8,349 nt of DNA from a virus (IMGVR_UViG_2718218102_000001), one strand, 5' to 3'. Counted from the stretch's first letter, positions 2,042-8,349 are shown. A program made the numbers and translations. Notes: generated by a model from the letters alone, not told the origin.

Positions 2042-2072
2042 AAACGTGCAGTGTAGGTAATACTGCACGTTT
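2042..2072 (-). terminator. candidate rho-independent terminator or attenuator on the minus strand, between the regulator gene and the accessory operon
   Basis: Perfect 11-bp inverted repeat (2042-2052 with 2062-2072), 9-nt loop. On the minus strand the stem is followed by UUUUUAAAUU. Lies 17 nt downstream of the stop of the 2089..2271 gene. Confidence 0.5.
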
Positions 2073-2088
2073 GTACCATTCGTGGTAC

Positions 2089-2271
2089 TTAATCCTTTTG
2101 TTTGGCAGACATGAGATCTTCTGCTGCATCTTTAGAGTAGTTATCAATCAGATAACCTAAAATCTCTGTCCATGTAATTGTTTTTCCTAGTTTTACACTG
2201 GCATTTATAGCCAGTCGTTCTAGTTTCATTTTTCTTTCTTCCGTCACGTTATAAGTCGTGCGCTTTGCCAT
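2089..2271 (-). CDS. putative ribbon-helix-helix (Arc/MetJ/CopG-like) DNA-binding regulator (60 aa), divergent from gII
   Basis: MAKRTTYNVTEERKMKLERLAINASVKLGKTITWTEILGYLIDNY fits a beta-strand, helix, G-x-T turn, helix pattern. Placement is divergent from the replication gene, as for repressors of other filamentous prophages (for example RstR of CTXphi, by analogy only). Confidence 0.5.
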   Translation of the reverse strand: MAKRTTYNVTEERKMKLERLAINASVKLGKTITWTEILGYLIDNYSKDAAEDLMSAKQKD

Positions 2272-2440
2272 TTTTTACGCTCGTTCAATGCAATATTTGA
2301 AGTGAGTATACATGCTCATGAACTCATATCATCCAAGCCTCTTGAACTCACTAGCTCACTGATGTAATGTTAAAACACTAATGAACTACTGAACTCATGT
2401 GTTAGTAAGTCGTCATTTTTGCAATTTTGAGGATTTATTC
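2272..2440. promoter_or_regulatory. divergent promoter/operator region with iterated motifs; possible (+) strand origin
   Basis: Four copies of TGAACT(C/A) at 2319, 2343, 2382 and 2390. CTCACT is repeated at 2347 and 2355. Candidate sigma70 promoter for gII: TTGAAC (2342-2347), 17 nt, TAATGT (2365-2370). GAGGA at 2429-2433 lies 7 nt before GTG 2441. Confidence 0.4.
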
Positions 2441-3493
2441 GTGATCGATTGGCTTACCGGGATTTTCCCTTGCACACACAAACCGCTTCCGGCGGGGAGT
2501 GTTGTCAGCGTTGATGCTGACGGTGCAATTGAGTGGGAAACCGTTAAGCGACTGACTGTTCGCGGCTCGCATGAAGCAACGATGAAAGTACGATCGATAG
2601 GATCTAATGGCGAAGGTAAAGCGACACATTTGTACATTGATGGTAATCCGTCCAAGTTTTTGCAGGGGCATTCTGTTGTTGGGTCGGATGATATACAAGG
2701 GCTCATGTTGACGGTCTATGCCAGGATTTTATCCTTATTGAATATTCCTCATGATTTAGCGTCTTATAAAGCTGTTATAGCAGGTCAGTATAAAATTTCA
2801 CGTGTTGACATTAATTACATGTATTCATTATCTACGCTAGAAAATGTCAGATCATGGCTTTATGCCGCCGAATTTAAAGCTAAAACACGCCATGGTCGCG
2901 CATGTGGGAAAGGCGGTACAGTTTATTTAGGTAAAAACTCCCGTCGATGGAGTCTGAAATTTTATTCAAAATATGATGAACACGTTTCGGGTAAAAAAGG
3001 GCACCAGATAGCCGAAGATTTTGTACGAGCCGGGTTACTGGACTGGACGAAAGATAAATTACGTATTGAATTAACATTAAGAACAACTGAGCTTATTGAT
3101 TTAAATTTAACGCTTGGCGCTAACTGGAATATGAAAACACCACGTCAATTATTCTCTGAATATGTAGGGAGAATAGAAATGAATCAGAATGCTATTTTAA
3201 GTGATGAAAAAATAACGAAACTGCCAAGAAAAATACAGTCAACTTATTTACTTTGGAAACAAGGGGCTAACATGAAAGAAATGTTACCTCATAACACTTT
3301 TTATCGCCATAGAAGAGAATTGCTTTCGTTCGGTATCGATATTAATTTCTATTGTGATTCACCAGACTCTAATAACGTTGTTCCGCTAATAAGAACGCTG
3401 GAAGCCAAGCCAGTGGAAATCCCCTTATGGATTTATGAGAAAGGTTTTATTTTCGATTACAACCGTATTTCGCACGCCAGTAGCTGGCATTAA
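2441..3493 (+). CDS. gII: replication initiation (rolling-circle nickase) protein, Ff gene II-like (about 350 aa)
   Basis: N-terminus (M)IDWLTG resembles Ff pII MIDMLVL; KFLQGHSVVG resembles KVLQGHNVFG; C-terminal NNVVPLIR resembles NNVVPLVR (M13 recalled from memory). GTG 2441 chosen over GTG 2399 because of the GAGGA RBS. Stop TAA 3491-3493. Confidence 0.75.
   Translation: MIDWLTGIFPCTHKPLPAGSVVSVDADGAIEWETVKRLTVRGSHEATMKVRSIGSNGEGKATHLYIDGNPSKFLQGHSVVGSDDIQGLMLTVYARILSLLNIPHDLASYKAVIAGQYKISRVDINYMYSLSTLENVRSWLYAAEFKAKTRHGRACGKGGTVYLGKNSRRWSLKFYSKYDEHVSGKKGHQIAEDFVRAGLLDWTKDKLRIELTLRTTELIDLNLTLGANWNMKTPRQLFSEYVGRIEMNQNAILSDEKITKLPRKIQSTYLLWKQGANMKEMLPHNTFYRHRRELLSFGIDINFYCDSPDSNNVVPLIRTLEAKPVEIPLWIYEKGFIFDYNRISHASSWH
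3179..3493 (+). CDS. gX: gene X-like product from an in-frame internal start within gII (104 aa)
   Basis: In-frame ATG at 3179 preceded by AGGGAG with 7 nt spacing. Context IEMNQNAILSDEK aligns with the Ff pX start region DSMNIYDDSAVLD. Confidence 0.5.
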   Translation: MNQNAILSDEKITKLPRKIQSTYLLWKQGANMKEMLPHNTFYRHRRELLSFGIDINFYCDSPDSNNVVPLIRTLEAKPVEIPLWIYEKGFIFDYNRISHASSWH

Positions 3494-3504
3494 AGGAAAG
3501 TAAT

Positions 3505-3822
3505 ATGTCTAATTATGGTCTTTTCGTTAAGGGTAAAATGTTGGGAGCCCGCCAACGTAATAAAGTTAATGGTCAGGGCTATTATAATGAAATTGGTATT
3601 GGCCTTGAAATACCTGATGGTTTTGGTGGTACAAAGCAGGATCAAATTATTATTCGAGTTTCTCAGACTCTCGTTAACGCAGGTCTAATGAACCAGGCGA
3701 ATGCTTTCATTGGGAAATTAGTTCAAATTCCTGTCTATGTCCGTGCGTGGTCAATGGAGGGTAGGGAAGGTGTAACTTATAATGTTTCTTCCGATGGTGG
3801 CATCGCAGAGATCAAAGGTTAA
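3505..3822 (+). CDS. putative ssDNA-binding protein in the gene V position (105 aa)
   Basis: ATG 3505 with AGGAA RBS at 6 nt spacing, 11 nt after the gII stop and 2 nt before gVII. Assignment is by position only; I see no obvious similarity to Ff pV. Confidence 0.5.
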   Translation: MSNYGLFVKGKMLGARQRNKVNGQGYYNEIGIGLEIPDGFGGTKQDQIIIRVSQTLVNAGLMNQANAFIGKLVQIPVYVRAWSMEGREGVTYNVSSDGGIAEIKG

Positions 3823-3824
3823 AT

Positions 3825-3911
3825 ATGGACGATGTTATTCAAATTTTGATAGCGTCTGGCATCGTTATTTCTTTTGGCCTCGGCGCGATTACTGCGGGGG
3901 TCTTTCGTTAA
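3825..3911 (+). CDS. gVII: minor coat protein pVII-like (28 aa)
   Basis: Not in the ORF track (too short). Hand translation gives MDDVIQILIASGIVISFGLGAITAGVFR, hydrophobic with a GxxxAG motif like Ff pVII. Stop TAA 3909-3911 overlaps the next ATG (TAATG). Confidence 0.6.
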   Translation: MDDVIQILIASGIVISFGLGAITAGVFR

Positions 3912-4025: not shown

Positions 4026-4268
4026 ATGAAAATTCTGTCTACTGTTAAATATAAAGTTGCTCTGGCTTCAACTGCGCTTTTTGTTTCTGCAAGTTCTTTT
4101 GCGGCTGAAGGCGCTACAGGTGGTACTGATTATGCAGGTCAGGCAATGGATGCTTTGTTGACTCAGGCAAATGATCTCATTGGTAAAGTATGGCCTGTTG
4201 TTGTGGCTGTGGTTGGCGCTGGGCTTGCCATTCGTATTTTCAAAAAATTCTCTTCAAAAGCGGTTTGA
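4026..4268 (+). CDS. gVIII: major coat protein pVIII precursor (80 aa)
   Basis: GGAG RBS 8 nt upstream. Signal peptide ending SFA|AEG, acidic N-terminus, hydrophobic core, basic C-terminus [12 protein letters not shown] typical of Ff/IKe-class major coat proteins. Confidence 0.9.
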
Positions 4269-4314: not shown

Positions 4315-5640
4315 ATGAAAAGGAAAATATTAATTCTTTCCGCTGTCCTCATTTCTCCTTTTTCACATGCTGAGTCATGGGAAAGCATTACTAAATCCAC
4401 TTATCAAAGCTCTGCCTACGCTGAAAGTAAGCAAATAACCAATCAGGATGGCTCTAAGTCAACGGTTTACTATATTGATGCTGCTATGCAGGCCTCCGCT
4501 TGTCAGGGTGCTAAATCCAGTGCTCAGAGTGTATTTACTCAGGTTAAACCAACTTATGAGGGTATCTGGCCTGATTCTGAATTCCGTCTTGTTTTTACTG
4601 GTGATTGTACTTACAGCGATTCACCAGGGCAGAAGGATAAATATTGGTCTTTAACGGCTTATATTGTTGGTGATATTCAGCGTTCTGTTCCTGATGAAAA
4701 ACCTACTGACCCGACACCAGAAGAAATTTGTGAAGCGAAGCCGCCAGAAGAAGGTGTATTTAATAATGTTGATTCATATGATGGTGGTCGTTATATCTAC
4801 TATAACGGCTGTGAATATGAGGCTACTGGTGTCATTGTTTGTCAGGGTGATGGTACTGTTTGCGCTGCAACATGGAAGCCTACAGGTACTGTAGCTGACC
4901 CCTCTGATAAACCCTCAACCCCCCAAAATGGTGGTGGTGAGTCTGGCGGTGGTGAGTCTGGCGGTGGTGAGTCTGGCGGTGGTGAGTCCGGTGGCGGTAG
5001 TTCTGGCGGTGGTGAGTCCGGTGGCGGTAGTTCTGGCGGTGGTGAGTCCGGTGGCGGTAGTTCTGGCGGTGGTGAGTCCGGTGGCGGTAGTTCTGGCGGT
5101 GGCTTTAGTGGTTCCAGTCTTTCTAAAGGTGATATTCAGTCTGCTATCGAAGGTGCTTCACCCAAAATAGCCAGCGATATTCATGATAAATTAACGGAGA
5201 AAGACACTTCATCAGATGATAAAAAAAATGCCGATGAACAAACTAGGAATAATATAAATCGTCTTGACGATTCCATTAACAATCTTACGCGGGGGGCTGG
5301 CCGTTTTGCTGACCCTTCAGGTGGTGATTCTCGTTATGGAAAGGGCGACTCTGAATTAGATGGCGCTTCTACTTTGGCTGATTCTGAATTGGGAATTGAA
5401 AAGGATTCTCACGGTGCTTTATGGGAAGCATTTTTAAATAAAGGTGCTATGCTGCCTAATTTACCCAATGGTAACGGCTGCTCTGATTTTATTATTTTTC
5501 CCGGAGAGGTTTATCAGATTGATATTGGTTGCGATAAATTACTGACTATTAAAGATGTTCTTTCATGGGTTTTTTATTGCCTTACGTTCTGGTATGTCTT
5601 TACTTCTTTAACTTCATTGCTTCGCAAAGGGGGTGAGTGA
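4315..5640 (+). CDS. gIII: minor coat / adsorption protein pIII (about 441 aa)
   Basis: Start set at the in-frame ATG 4315 giving signal peptide [19 protein letters not shown]; the track ORF begins upstream inside gVIII. Cys-rich N-terminal domain, long Gly-rich linker, and a C-terminal anchor resembling the M13 pIII C-terminus (CDK...YVF...LRxK). Stop TGA 5638-5640 overlaps the gVI ATG. Confidence 0.9.
4936..5100 (+). repeat. in-frame tandem repeat, 11 copies of a 15-nt unit, encoding the Gly-rich pIII linker
   Basis: GGTGAGTCTGGCGGT x3 (4936-4980), then a 30-nt unit GGTGAGTCCGGTGGCGGTAGTTCTGGCGGT x4 (4981-5100). Encodes alternating GGGES and GGGSS. Confidence 0.9.
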
Positions 5641-5981
5641 TGCCTTTATTATTAGGTATTCCTGCATTGTTGCGTTTTCTTATTGGTCTTGTTCCTTTGT
5701 TTATTGGCTATGTGGCGAGTTTTTTAGCTCGACTTGCTACCAGAACAGGATTAATCGCCTTTGCATTGGTCGCATTAATTACAACAACTGTTACGCTTTT
5801 AATGCAGTACCTTGCTGAGGTCATGTATAACGGTTTACCTGCTGATTTCTCCCATTTAATGGCGTCTGTATTGCCTGACCATTTTCAGGCGTGTGTTAAC
5901 GTTATTATGGTTACTCGTATCAGTGTTTTTGTTTTCGATTTAAAACAAAAATTTCTTGATTATGCAAACAGGGTGATTTAA
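5640..5981 (+). CDS. gVI: minor coat protein pVI (113 aa)
   Basis: [17 protein letters not shown]... resembles M13 pVI MPVLLGIPLLLRFLG... (recalled). ATG 5640 overlaps the gIII stop (TGATG); the track used GTG 5637. Stop TAA 5979-5981 abuts the gI ATG. Confidence 0.85.
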   Translation: MPLLLGIPALLRFLIGLVPLFIGYVASFLARLATRTGLIAFALVALITTTVTLLMQYLAEVMYNGLPADFSHLMASVLPDHFQACVNVIMVTRISVFVFDLKQKFLDYANRVI

Positions 5982-7076
5982 ATGGCGGTTCATGTAGTAA
6001 CAGGCAAATTAGGCTCAGGCAAGACACTTGTTAGTGTTTCCAGAATACAGGAAAGACTTGCTAAGGGTTGTCCTGTTGCCACTAATCTTGATCTTAAATT
6101 GCATAATATGCCTATGGTTGGGCGTTATGCGAAAAAAACGCGCGTTATTCGCATTCCTGACAAGCCTTCATTAAATGATTTACTTGCTATTGGTATTGGG
6201 AATACATCTTACGATGAATCCCGTAATGGCCTCCTTGTACTTGATGAATGTGGTACTTGGTTTAATTCCCGCTCATGGGGTGATAAAGACAGACAACCTG
6301 TTATTGACTGGTTTTTACATGCCAGAAAATTAGGCTGGGATATTATATTTTTGATTCAGGATATTTCGATAATGGATAAGCAAGCTCGTCTGGCGCTTGC
6401 TGAGCATGTTGTTTATTGTCGCCGTTCAGATAAATTAAACATTCCTTTTGTTGGCTCCATTATGAATTTGGTTTCAGGGGCGCGATTTTCTTTACCAAAG
6501 GTACACTTTGGCATTGTCAAATATGGTGATAACGTTAATTCAATTACTGTTGATAAATGGATATACACCGGAAAATCATTATATTCCGCCTACAATACAA
6601 AACAGGTTTTTACTGATAACTATCCGCATGGTGCTTATTCGCTTTTGCCACCATTTATCACGCACGGTCAATTTTCTGTTCACAGAGGATTTAATTATTA
6701 TATGCGCCTCACGAAAATTTATTTTCGCAAATCGAACCGTCTTATATTAATGCTTTCTTTTTTGGCGCTGGGGCTTGCGCTTGGTTTCTGGCTCCAGTCT
6801 GGAAAGAATGTTGATGAAATCTCCGCTATTAAATCTGCTTATGCTGAACAGGCGAGGGCGGTAACGCCTGATTCGTCCAGTGACTTACCCCGACTTTCTA
6901 TTAATTCTTTTTCACAACTTGGCTTTGACGTTTCCGTTACGTTTGTTGATGCAAAAGGTACGAAATATCAGTATTTTGATTTGATTAAAGATGGTTATTC
7001 CGTTGATATTAAAGATGCCTGTCGTGTTGTTATTAGAAAAGGCCGTTATTTACAGACTGTTATCTGTCAGGAGTAA
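5982..7076 (+). CDS. gI: assembly ATPase pI (Zot-like), 364 aa
   Basis: Walker A motif GKLGSGKT at residues 8-15. Long colinear similarity to M13 pI (MAVYFVTGKLGSGKTLVSV..., LLVLDECGTWFN..., FLHARKLGWDIIFL...; recalled). C-terminal membrane segment. Confidence 0.9.
   Translation: MAVHVVTGKLGSGKTLVSVSRIQERLAKGCPVATNLDLKLHNMPMVGRYAKKTRVIRIPDKPSLNDLLAIGIGNTSYDESRNGLLVLDECGTWFNSRSWGDKDRQPVIDWFLHARKLGWDIIFLIQDISIMDKQARLALAEHVVYCRRSDKLNIPFVGSIMNLVSGARFSLPKVHFGIVKYGDNVNSITVDKWIYTGKSLYSAYNTKQVFTDNYPHGAYSLLPPFITHGQFSVHRGFNYYMRLTKIYFRKSNRLILMLSFLALGLALGFWLQSGKNVDEISAIKSAYAEQARAVTPDSSSDLPRLSINSFSQLGFDVSVTFVDAKGTKYQYFDLIKDGYSVDIKDACRVVIRKGRYLQTVICQE
6702..7076 (+). CDS. gXI: pXI-like product from an in-frame internal start within gI (124 aa)
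   Basis: In-frame ATG at 6702 (pI residue 241, the same position as the M13 gene XI start), just before the TM segment LILMLSFLALGLALGFW. AGAGGA lies 12 nt upstream. Confidence 0.5.
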   Translation: MRLTKIYFRKSNRLILMLSFLALGLALGFWLQSGKNVDEISAIKSAYAEQARAVTPDSSSDLPRLSINSFSQLGFDVSVTFVDAKGTKYQYFDLIKDGYSVDIKDACRVVIRKGRYLQTVICQE

Positions 7077-7083
7077 TATTATT

Positions 7084-8349
7084 ATGCGCTCTGTTATTGT
7101 TGCTTTTTTATTTGCCTGTTCATTCTGCGTTTCTGCTGAAACTGTTAATTTAAACAATTCATCTGTTCGCTCATTTGTTCAGTGGTATTCTTCAAAAACT
7201 GGCAAGCCTGTTATTGTTAATCCTGATATTAAAGGAAACGTAACCGTATTTAATGCTGATGTTAATCCAACAAATATTGATGATTTCTTTAAGTCTGTTC
7301 TGAATGCTAACGGTTTTGTCATGCTTTCTGGCAATCCTGCGGTAGTCTCTTTGCCGTCTAAATTACCTTCACAGATGGTTTCGGATTCCGATGATTCTGA
7401 TAACCAGTCTTATGATACTTTTCCTTCTGAGCCATCTTACCAGCCAGTACCTGTGGCGCTTACGGTCAGAAATTTTAAGCTGACAAAAGTTAGATCGTCC
7501 GATGTTCAGCAACTGATTAAAATTTATCTTGATTCTAATGGTGGTGGTAATGTCGTGGATTATCCAGGCAATAACTCGCTGATTGTTTCTGCGCCTGACG
7601 AGCTGCTGCCGGTTCTGTCCGATTTTATCAATTCTGTGGATGTTGCCCGCGATCAGGTTCTCATTCAGTCGCTGATGTTTGAAACCAGCTTGTCTGATGG
7701 CGTTGATTTATCGTTTGCGGCAGGTTCTGCATCCGGTCATAAGGTTGCGGGGGGCTTTAATACTTCTGCACTGGGTAGCGCTCTTTCTACGGCGGGCGGT
7801 TCTTTTGGTATTTTTGATGGTAACGTGTTGGCGCTGTCTCTGCGTGCTGTCCAGAGTAATTCACGCTCTAAGGTGATTTCAACGCCGCGTATTCTTACTC
7901 AGTCTGGTCAGACTGGTTACATTTCCGTAGGTAAGAATGTGCCGTTTATCACCGGAAAGGTAACGGGCGAATCTGCCGGGGTAAATAATCCGTTTCAGAC
8001 TATCGAGCGTCATGATGTTGGCGTTTCTCTCAAGGTAACGCCTGTTGTCATGGGTAACGGGCAACTAGTTCTGACTATCGACACTCGCGCTGATTCAATC
8101 AGCAATGATGATCAGGCATCCGATATTATTACTAATCAGCGCCAGATTCAGACGACAGTCCAGATTAAGGATGGTCAGACGTTGTTATTGGGGGGGCTTA
8201 TCGATTCATCGTTTAGCAATGCTGAGCGTTCAGTTCCAGTTATAAGTAAAATTCCTCTTATAGGCTGGATTTTCAGTAGCAAGGCAGACAGCAATGAACA
8301 GCGTATTATGTATATTTTGCTTACAGCACATATCATTCGTCCACTTTGA
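7084..8349 (+). CDS. gIV: outer-membrane secretin pIV (about 421 aa)
   Basis: Start set at ATG 7084 giving signal peptide MRSVIVAFLFACSFCVSA|ET; the track ORF starts upstream inside gI. Strong similarity to M13 pIV throughout (NVPFITGKVTGESAGVNNPFQTIER, DGQTLLLGGL, SKIPLIGWIFSS). Stop TGA 8347-8349 is the window end. Confidence 0.9.
   Translation: MRSVIVAFLFACSFCVSAETVNLNNSSVRSFVQWYSSKTGKPVIVNPDIKGNVTVFNADVNPTNIDDFFKSVLNANGFVMLSGNPAVVSLPSKLPSQMVSDSDDSDNQSYDTFPSEPSYQPVPVALTVRNFKLTKVRSSDVQQLIKIYLDSNGGGNVVDYPGNNSLIVSAPDELLPVLSDFINSVDVARDQVLIQSLMFETSLSDGVDLSFAAGSASGHKVAGGFNTSALGSALSTAGGSFGIFDGNVLALSLRAVQSNSRSKVISTPRILTQSGQTGYISVGKNVPFITGKVTGESAGVNNPFQTIERHDVGVSLKVTPVVMGNGQLVLTIDTRADSISNDDQASDIITNQRQIQTTVQIKDGQTLLLGGLIDSSFSNAERSVPVISKIPLIGWIFSSKADSNEQRIMYILLTAHIIRPL

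Follow-up and report, generated by a model that had tools for sequence, protein, structure and literature searches.

Upstream of gene II in this phage genome, two modules are likely to lie side by side in a layout resembling that of CTXφ: an immunity switch operated by a small ribbon-helix-helix (RHH) regulator at 2089-2440, and a core of the viral-strand replication origin at 2042-2088. The window, i.e., the whole stretch of 8349 bp that was analyzed, is a complete filamentous-phage (inovirus) genome of a temperate, dif-integrating, UPΦ-type phage of E. coli. All the features listed for this region in an earlier note, namely a regulator gene, TGAACT and CTCACT repeats, a gene II promoter, a palindrome, and a hairpin, are present and non-random in repeat, fold, and shuffle tests.

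Gene II (2441-3493, + strand) starts with GTG and encodes the rolling-circle initiator pII of 350 aa, which matches the Pfam families Phage_CRI (E = 3e-70) and G2P_X_C (E = 5e-29). It is followed by genes V (3505-3822), VIII (4026-4268), III (4315-5640), VI (5637-5981), I (5982-7076), and IV (7084-8349), with two small + strand ORFs after gene IV, and a block of minus-strand ORFs spans 873-2271. The GTG at 2441 agrees with the RefSeq relatives and with the Phage_CRI alignment, which begins at residue 1, and a Shine-Dalgarno sequence, GAGGA, is found 8 nt upstream of it (2428-2432, + strand); a longer version of the gene starting from GTG-2399 was rejected on the same three grounds. The genome fits the published description of the UPΦ group, in which the structural genes are IKe-like, genes II and V are ~85% identical to those of YpfΦ, integration occurs at dif, and the accessory ORFs are in reverse orientation; the repressor and the origin are not discussed in that paper (PMC7307601). 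Near-identical copies (97-99%) are integrated at dif in 44 complete E. coli genomes, the copy in UM146 adjoining hipBA, and the prophage junctions overlap at 760-781 of the window, within a dif-like site. A Salmonella relative, a circular “plasmid” of 7938 bp, is evidently a replicative form. In DNA searches of phage collections, the sole matches were short ones in gene IV, to IKe and PEar phages, with none for 1950-2500, and an Rfam search of 1-2600 gave no family.

The regulator gene (2089-2271, minus strand) encodes a 60-aa protein and is divergent from gene II, a synteny kept in all homologues examined, which are in inoviruses. The protein matches PHROG 2503, where no function is assigned, and a word-based search found close relatives only, all labelled hypothetical. 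Searched by sequence against Pfam and PDB, the 60-aa protein gave no significant match, and neither a match to an HTH family nor homology to RstR, the CTXφ repressor, was found. A profile search of 1.8 billion representatives gathered 76 small proteins, and the AlphaFold (AF2) model made with this deeper alignment reached a pLDDT of 95; the model has an extended N-terminus (residues 1-10) followed by two helices (11-28 and 34-59), i.e., the β-α-α topology. Profile comparisons point in the same direction: weak ParG matches are seen in 7 of 64 family members (best E = 0.019), the PDB profile matches of the family, also weak, are to TTHA0139 (E = 0.046) and ParG (E = 0.21), and hhalign aligns the regulator with ParG over the whole domain at 71% probability, the ParG query sequence being approximate. 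At the sequence level, the family stays below the threshold for every curated Pfam and PDB entry. The predicted ribbon, KRTTYNVT, has polar residues at positions 2, 4, and 6 and follows the pattern common to the ribbons of ParG, KRVNVNFD, and CopG, KRLTITLS (PMC3413123). On this model the RHH fold is accepted, and together with the kept synteny it bears out the earlier proposal of a small RHH-type regulator divergent from gene II. The family is unannotated, and its member here is a candidate immunity repressor, presumably acting on gene II. An omega-like RHH ORF has been noted, without study, in another filamentous phage (PMC10534721).

The intergenic region between the two divergent genes (2272-2440, 169 bp) carries TGAACT at 2319, 2343, 2382, and 2390, the only four + strand copies in the 8349-bp window. 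The exact 8-mer TGAACTCA occurs three times in this region and once elsewhere in the window, while shuffles of the whole window contain 0.29 copies on average and four copies are reached in none of 200. These repeats fall into three clusters on the + strand. O1 (2311-2326) is composed of a degenerate unit CATGCTCA (2311-2318) and TGAACTCA (2319-2326); O2 (2343-2358) of TGAACTCA (2343-2350) and a degenerate unit CTAGCTCA (2351-2358); and O3 (2382-2405) of TGAACTAC, TGAACTCA, and TGTGTTAG in an 8-bp register. In relatives, O1 is kept in position, 24-25 bp from O2, with its orientation flipped in some, and the place of O3 is taken by two or three 8-mers in the same register and in either orientation. 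From these arrangements, the predicted operator unit is an 8-bp pseudo-palindrome, TGA(A/G)(C/T)TCA; its use in either orientation would suit a symmetric RHH dimer. The CTCACT direct repeat listed in the earlier note does exist (2347 and 2355). It is not kept in the Brenneria or Phytobacter relatives, and was rejected as a separate signal; it makes more sense as a component of the 8-bp register.

Both genes have a promoter candidate in this region, and the clusters lie on them. The predicted gene II promoter (2342-2370, + strand) consists of a -35 element TTGAAC (2342-2347), a 17-bp spacer, and a -10 element TAATGT (2365-2370). It is weak by consensus, scoring below the threshold of the consensus scan. 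The geometry proposed in the earlier note is conserved: diverged relatives all have TTGAAC as the -35 and a spacer of 17 bp, and four of the five have a -10 of the form TAnnnT (TTATAT in the fifth, L023), and the same geometry is kept also in relatives with a different pII. The only match to the consensus promoter in the intergenic region faces the regulator gene (2305-2332, minus strand), with a -35 ATGATA (2332-2327), a 16-bp spacer, and a -10 TATACT (2310-2305), and relatives retain a hexamer resembling a -10 at the same place. The spacer of this regulator promoter-like site contains O1, O2 overlaps the -35 of the gene II promoter, and O3 is located at about +5 to +28 of the predicted gene II transcription start. 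This overlap with the gene II promoter agrees with the repressor-controlled replication switch that had been suggested, of the type found in temperate inoviruses.

What the repeats belong to can be read from two complementary comparisons, each on a small sample of about a dozen loci. In the first, pII is similar and the regulator differs. A CUS/YpfΦ-like replicative form (L003), a Klebsiella plasmid copy (L004), and YpfΦ of Y. pestis (L007/8) share with the window the segments 2442-3829, i.e., genes II and V at 80% nucleotide identity, and 1570-2099, which contains the 140-aa ORF together with the hairpin and palindrome, and the homology is lost exactly at 2100-2441. At that slot these three encode an HTH regulator of 148 aa, next to an intergenic region of 171 bp that is unrelated to the window's and contains TTGAC(A/T) and GCTCA repeats. 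The 148-aa protein is presumably YPO2273, the RstR-like regulator of YpfΦ, for which control by RovA has been reported (PMC4266046). The YPO2273 region of YpfΦ and CUS-1 resembles that of the window in its slot, flanked by the hairpin/inverted repeat on one side and by a gene II of 85% identity on the other, and in the gene for the same 140-aa membrane protein downstream, and differs from it in the regulator and the intergenic region. Klebsiella spallanzanii, whose homology to the window likewise covers 1570-2099 and 2442-3829 and breaks off at 2100-2441, has a third type of regulator and intergenic region with a pII 99% identical to that of YpfΦ. The intergenic regions of YpfΦ, the CUS-like phage, and K. 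spallanzanii, whose pII are 85-99% identical, are unrelated and without the TGAACT motif. The regulator and the intergenic region, as judged from these loci, are exchanged as one cassette between phages with conserved flanks.

In the second comparison, the regulator is related and pII is not. RHH homologues 59-86% identical to that of the window, with the same ribbon, are found divergent from genes for pII of 371-381 aa that are only ~22% identical to the window's. These loci have the exact TGAACTCA or its complement TGAGTTCA at O1, O2, and O3, with the O1-O2 spacing of 24-25 bp, further units in the 8-bp register, and the TTGAAC-17-TAnnnT geometry all kept. In one homologue with an altered ribbon, KRTTMAIT (L016), the repeats are different and no TGAACTCA is present. 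Since the repeats are kept with the RHH family and lost beside near-identical pII, the TGAACT repeats are best taken as putative operators, i.e., binding sites of the RHH protein. From this co-variation of ribbon and 8-bp unit, the regulator is predicted to act as a dimer that places an antiparallel ribbon in the major groove of short repeated sites.

The earlier note had also offered these repeats as iterons of the origin, so that pII would bind and nick within 2272-2440. Their position directly upstream of gene II, like that of the Ff origin, and their strongly non-random occurrence would agree with this, but repeats of such an origin should co-vary with the initiator, and here they do the opposite: they are missing from the phages with 85-99%-identical pII and retained in RHH-family phages with an unrelated one. 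The units also overlap both promoters in an operator-like manner. We regard an iteron origin as very improbable.

In having a small RHH protein, here predicted to be a dimer, with a K-R-x-polar-x-polar ribbon, and arrays of short units in a fixed register, direct or inverted, over a promoter, the operator reading has counterparts in ParG of TP228, omega of pSM19035, and CopG of pMV158. CopG likewise controls the synthesis of a rolling-circle initiator, RepB. The differences are that the window's protein has no match to a curated family, a longer helix 2 (34-59), and no ParF partner, that the unit it presumably recognizes is TGA(A/G)(C/T)TCA, and that its gene is divergent from, rather than co-transcribed with, the initiator gene. 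ParG sites are composed of ACTC boxes and 4-bp spacers, which gives an 8-bp register (PMC3413123). This likeness of the arrays, and the protein's sequence being most similar to ParG, might suggest that the 60-aa protein is a ParG-like partition (centromere-binding) protein, or, as one relative has a Doc-family toxin gene just downstream, an antitoxin or another regulator of neighboring cargo, instead of an immunity repressor. Such roles seem improbable: no ParA/ParF-type ATPase is encoded in the genome, the cargo varies among relatives while the RHH gene stays, and the Doc gene is ~150 bp away, past the hairpin. Moreover, the sites sit on two divergent promoters, and the cassette occupies the slot of the RstR-like HTH regulator in YpfΦ. 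The repressor role remains the preferred one for the protein.

The second module adjoins the regulator gene at its 3′ side. A hairpin with an 11-bp stem and a 9-nt loop, detected by repeat and fold tools (2042-2072, + strand), is the candidate nick hairpin of the viral-strand (+) origin, and an inverted repeat GTACCA-TTCG-TGGTAC found by the repeat search (2073-2088, + strand) is the candidate pII binding site. The conserved part of the stem (2044-2052/2062-2070) is ACGTGCAGT/ACTGCACGT, and the loop (2053-2061) is GTAGGTAAT. Folded as DNA, the two stem-loops give -16.8 kcal/mol (z = -5.3), and none of 200 shuffles folds as well. The window has a single hairpin with a 6-bp inverted repeat directly behind it, an arrangement seen in 5 of 200 dinucleotide shuffles. 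Where loci with an RHH regulator were examined, the pair was found either abutting the regulator stop codon or no more than ~12 nt from it; in YpfΦ-type loci it is located 12 nt beyond the regulator stop.

The pair follows pII in both comparisons. The hairpin is invariant except for one loop base in all phages with the 350-aa pII, whatever regulator or cargo they carry; the YpfΦ/CUS-like phages and K. spallanzanii keep ACGTGCAGT-GT(A/T)GGTAAT-ACTGCACGT-TT and then the palindrome. The palindrome is GTACCA..TGGTAC in the pII clade of the window (93-100% identical) and, whatever the regulator type, GTCTCA-TTCC-TGAGAC in the clade whose pII is 85% identical. Because its variant does not follow the regulator type, the palindrome was rejected as an operator of the regulator. 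In the RHH-family phages with a pII of 371-381 aa, the hairpin is different, GTTCGGG(G)-loop-(C)CCCGAAC followed by TTT and a variable palindrome. Within the clade with the 371-aa pII (clade B) the hairpin is invariant, while five of seven palindrome pairs are changed on both sides among five sequences; an invariant hairpin next to compensatory palindrome changes is the pattern expected of a catalytic target beside a co-evolving binding site. As the hairpin and palindrome variants follow pII and not the regulator, both elements appear to belong with pII.

Furthermore, the pair resembles domain A of the origins of Ff (M13/f1/fd) and IKe: both have a hairpin with a T-AATA loop, TT, and a 6-bp inverted repeat of the form GTnnCA-N3/4-TGnnAC, located 5′ of gene II on the viral strand. 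Written as left arm, loop, right arm, TT, and inverted repeat, the element is GAGTCCAC, GTTCTTTAATA, GTGGACTC, TT, GTTCCA-AAC-TGGAAC in M13; GAGTCCAC, TATGTTTAATA, GTGGACTC, TT, GTTGCA-TTT-TGCAAC in IKe; ACGTGCAGT, GTAGGTAAT, ACTGCACGT, TT, GTACCA-TTCG-TGGTAC in the window; and ACGTGCAGT, GTTGGTAAT, ACTGCACGT, TT, GTCTCA-TTCC-TGAGAC in YpfΦ. Twenty columns of this alignment are invariant, and the window hairpin shares TAATA and right-arm bases with those of M13 and IKe. The GenBank record of IKe annotates the equivalent elements as stem-loops of the viral-strand origin. Ff pII nicks TTCTTT^AATA in the loop of the origin hairpin and binds the adjacent inverted repeat. In Ff the nick position lies 14 nt before the inverted repeat, and so does the equivalent position here, T2058^A2059. 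For CTXφ, mapping has placed the nick at G^T, within the apical loop of the ori(+) hairpin (PMC4439123). The CTXφ hairpin, as read from its sequence, is ACCCCCGT-CTAGTATT-ACGGGGGT plus CACAG-AGC-CTGTG. The nick in the window is accordingly placed, as a prediction, at T2058^A2059 by analogy to Ff or at G2057^T2058 by analogy to CTXφ. Ff and IKe have other sequences in the stem and in the middle of the inverted repeat, and the AT-rich enhancer of Ff is replaced by the regulator gene and the operator region between the origin and gene II. The pII of Ff and IKe is only distantly related to the window's, and the likeness could partly reflect convergence on short motifs. Taken as a nick-type hairpin followed by an inverted repeat on the viral strand, 5′ of gene II, and as a single site in the window, 2042-2088 is probably the core of the viral-strand replication origin. 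An origin within the interval had been anticipated in the earlier note. It probably lies there indeed, but at the element that had been called a terminator, not at the iterons.

That note saw in this pair an attenuator gating the downstream genes. In the rival reading developed from it, the hairpin with its U-run and the palindrome would form a terminator or attenuator that ends the regulator transcript and gates the accessory genes, and the origin would lie elsewhere. The window does offer material for this reading. As minus-strand RNA the two stem-loops fold at -21.6 kcal/mol (z = -3.4), again with none of 200 shuffles folding as well, the minus strand after the hairpin reads TTTTTAAATT, and the RNA tail after both hairpins is UUUUUAAAUU, a good U-run. 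The 140-aa ORF starts 41 nt past the hairpin, a gap that leaves no room for a promoter of its own, so that it probably relies on read-through. The tail is strongly U-rich in the window and in one relative (L001) and moderately so, TCTTTATTGTG, in several E. coli relatives, but YpfΦ, Brenneria, Phytobacter, and all clade-B phages have no U-run (L006, L007/8, L013, and all clade-B loci). The combination by which an intrinsic terminator would be recognized, a G+C-rich stem with a U-run retained in relatives, was not found; the 9-nt loop exceeds the limit of the terminator scan. In addition, the loop is conserved in sequence, something for which a terminator has no need, the element varies with the type of pII and not with the regulator or the cargo, and it aligns with the Ff/IKe origin core. 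The boundary of variable cargo against the Salmonella replicative form is at 2040, and hence the hairpin belongs to the replication backbone. A terminator or attenuator as the conserved function is therefore unlikely, and the origin core is preferred; a secondary terminator role in this particular phage is possible.

The two functions may also be combined. The origin core lies in the 3′ untranslated part of the presumed repressor transcript and directly upstream of the variable cargo, so it could be a dual-use element, acting both as an RNA terminator and as a coupling element in DNA, and, with repressor cassettes and inverted-repeat variants shuffled independently of each other, this would give a two-key compatibility code. 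This extension is speculative and, in our estimate, has a low chance of being right. If it holds, the RNA form would be a lineage-tunable terminator setting cargo expression from the autoregulated repressor promoter; transcription across the core, or pII bound on the inverted repeat, would couple initiation of replication to repressor and cargo expression; and enterobacterial inoviruses would have a code of two keys, an immunity group and an origin-specificity group.

As a whole, the two-module arrangement corresponds to that of CTXφ in the order of origin, reverse repressor gene, operator region, and initiator gene. In both phages an operator/promoter region separates the repressor gene from a divergent gene for the rolling-circle initiator, and, as in the RstR-type switch of temperate inoviruses, the sites predicted here overlap both divergent promoters. 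In both, a cassette of repressor and intergenic region (rstR/ig-2 in CTXφ) varies between otherwise similar phages, and integration occurs at dif through the host Xer system. The CTXφ initiator RstA nicks the origin in Ig-1, which adjoins rstR, so that, seen from the initiator gene, the (+) origin is beyond the repressor gene (PMC8265649), as is the candidate in the window. The nick of CTXφ is in the apical loop of a hairpin (PMC4439123), the place predicted here. On the other hand, RstR is an HTH repressor without sequence homology to the 60-aa RHH protein, which by its predicted fold and the lack of an HTH family match would be an analogue and not a member of the RstR family. Ig-1 is 167 bp long, whereas the Ff-like origin candidate here is a compact 47 bp, and a further difference is that no LexA box was found in the intergenic region of the window.

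From these features the following scheme can be proposed. RHH dimers would bind the 8-bp TGA(A/G)(C/T)TCA units of the three clusters in their 8-bp register; at O1, in the spacer of the regulator promoter, binding would bring about autoregulation, and at O2 and O3 it would cover the -35 and the transcript start of gene II, respectively. Occupied operators would turn off the synthesis of pII, and of pV downstream, and this would lower replicative-form replication and virion output. The outcome of repression would be a quiet prophage or a low-copy replicative form, together with superinfection immunity, and swapping of the regulator and intergenic region as a unit would make the immunity cassette-specific, like that of rstR/ig-2 of CTXφ. 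When pII is made, it may bind the inverted repeat GTACCA-TTCG-TGGTAC and then nick the adjacent hairpin loop around G2057/T2058/A2059. From there, rolling-circle replication would proceed to the right, across the regulator gene, which is antisense, and gene II; on a replicative form it would stop on return to its starting site, and in a tandem prophage on reaching the following copy of that site. Of all this, the analysis directly shows the sequence features, the predicted fold, the synteny, the way each DNA element co-varies with its protein, and the likeness to the Ff/IKe origin; that the regulator binds DNA and represses, where the nick falls, and any side-role as a terminator are predictions drawn from sequence comparison.

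Prophages of the UPΦ and YpfΦ types are frequent in extra-intestinal E. coli, Salmonella, Klebsiella, and Yersinia pestis, and the present analysis bears on what silences them and where their replication starts. A candidate repressor (PHROG 2503, with no Pfam family) is assigned and its putative operator code is read out, the putative immunity cassettes are shown to be swapped between the UPΦ lineage and the plague-phage lineage, and the probable origin is placed beside the repressor gene as in CTXφ. By these elements, prophages could be sorted into immunity groups and origin-specificity groups. The operator code, the cassette swap, and the origin placement appear to be undescribed for UPΦ and YpfΦ phages; the underlying logic is already known and no new principle is involved.

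Further conserved non-coding blocks are found at 377-482 and 742-863 of the window. Where they lie and how they are shaped suggest packaging or minus-strand signals and the attP site, and they may contribute origin functions.

A third cassette, in which a regulator gene and its intergenic region are combined, is found in the relatives from K. spallanzanii (L009) and from a MAG (L010), beside a pII that shares 99% identity with pII of the Y. pestis phage YpfΦ. Therefore, this replication module is shared by at least three immunity types.

A 23-nt direct repeat of 78% identity is also present at the regulator gene and gene II of the window. One copy, at 2252–2274, spans the start codon of the regulator; the other, at 2406–2428, is located in the 5′ UTR of gene II, adjoining the Shine-Dalgarno sequence. 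The two divergent mRNAs would be complementary at this repeat, which makes an antisense interaction between them possible. Or the repeat could be a chance resemblance.

The layout of a hairpin followed by an inverted repeat is common to the candidate origin of the window and Ig-1 of CTXφ. At 3565–3607 of the CTXφ locus (L024), the origin hairpin, ACCCCCGT-CTAGTATT-ACGGGGGT, is followed, starting 6 nt after it, by CACAG-AGC-CTGTG, and the CTXφ hairpin loop TAGTATTAC is similar to the window loop TAGGTAATAC.

Between attP and the origin hairpin of the window lies a variable cargo slot (873–2039) bounded by homology breaks at 872 and 2040. The window has three ORFs in this slot, of 110, 137, and 140 aa; the 140-aa product is a membrane protein (PHROG 4174). 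The same slot is occupied by a Doc-family toxin in the Salmonella circular replicative form (L001), and by the ECs_2282 zinc-binding protein and a 159-aa ORF in the copy integrated in E. coli UM146. The dif-like attP lies in 760–863: GGTGCGCATAA at 768–778, identical to the XerC arm in dif of E. coli, is followed 11 bp beyond by TTATGTTGAAA at 790–800 and then by a hairpin with an 11-bp stem (801–834). The prophage junctions overlap at 760–781. Furthermore, the 92-bp segment 772–863 has matches of 90–96% identity in more than 400 plasmid records, mostly of conjugative plasmids, where it carries no annotation.

There are two other hairpins, each of which may be the packaging signal or the origin of the minus strand. 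The long hairpin CCCCGGACA...TGTCCGGGG (380–424) lies within a block (377–482) showing 88% conservation relative to YpfΦ-like phages, and the other, with a 9-bp stem, is found within 1–40, directly 3′ of gene IV.

The gene III linker (4928–5100) is a long tandem repeat, whose copy number varies among the relatives, so BLAST matches are split into pieces. Two contigs that contain this enterobacterial phage, L005 and L010, are placed in “Candidatus Nanosynbacter” and “Aerococcus” metagenome bins; probably, these labels reflect binning contamination.
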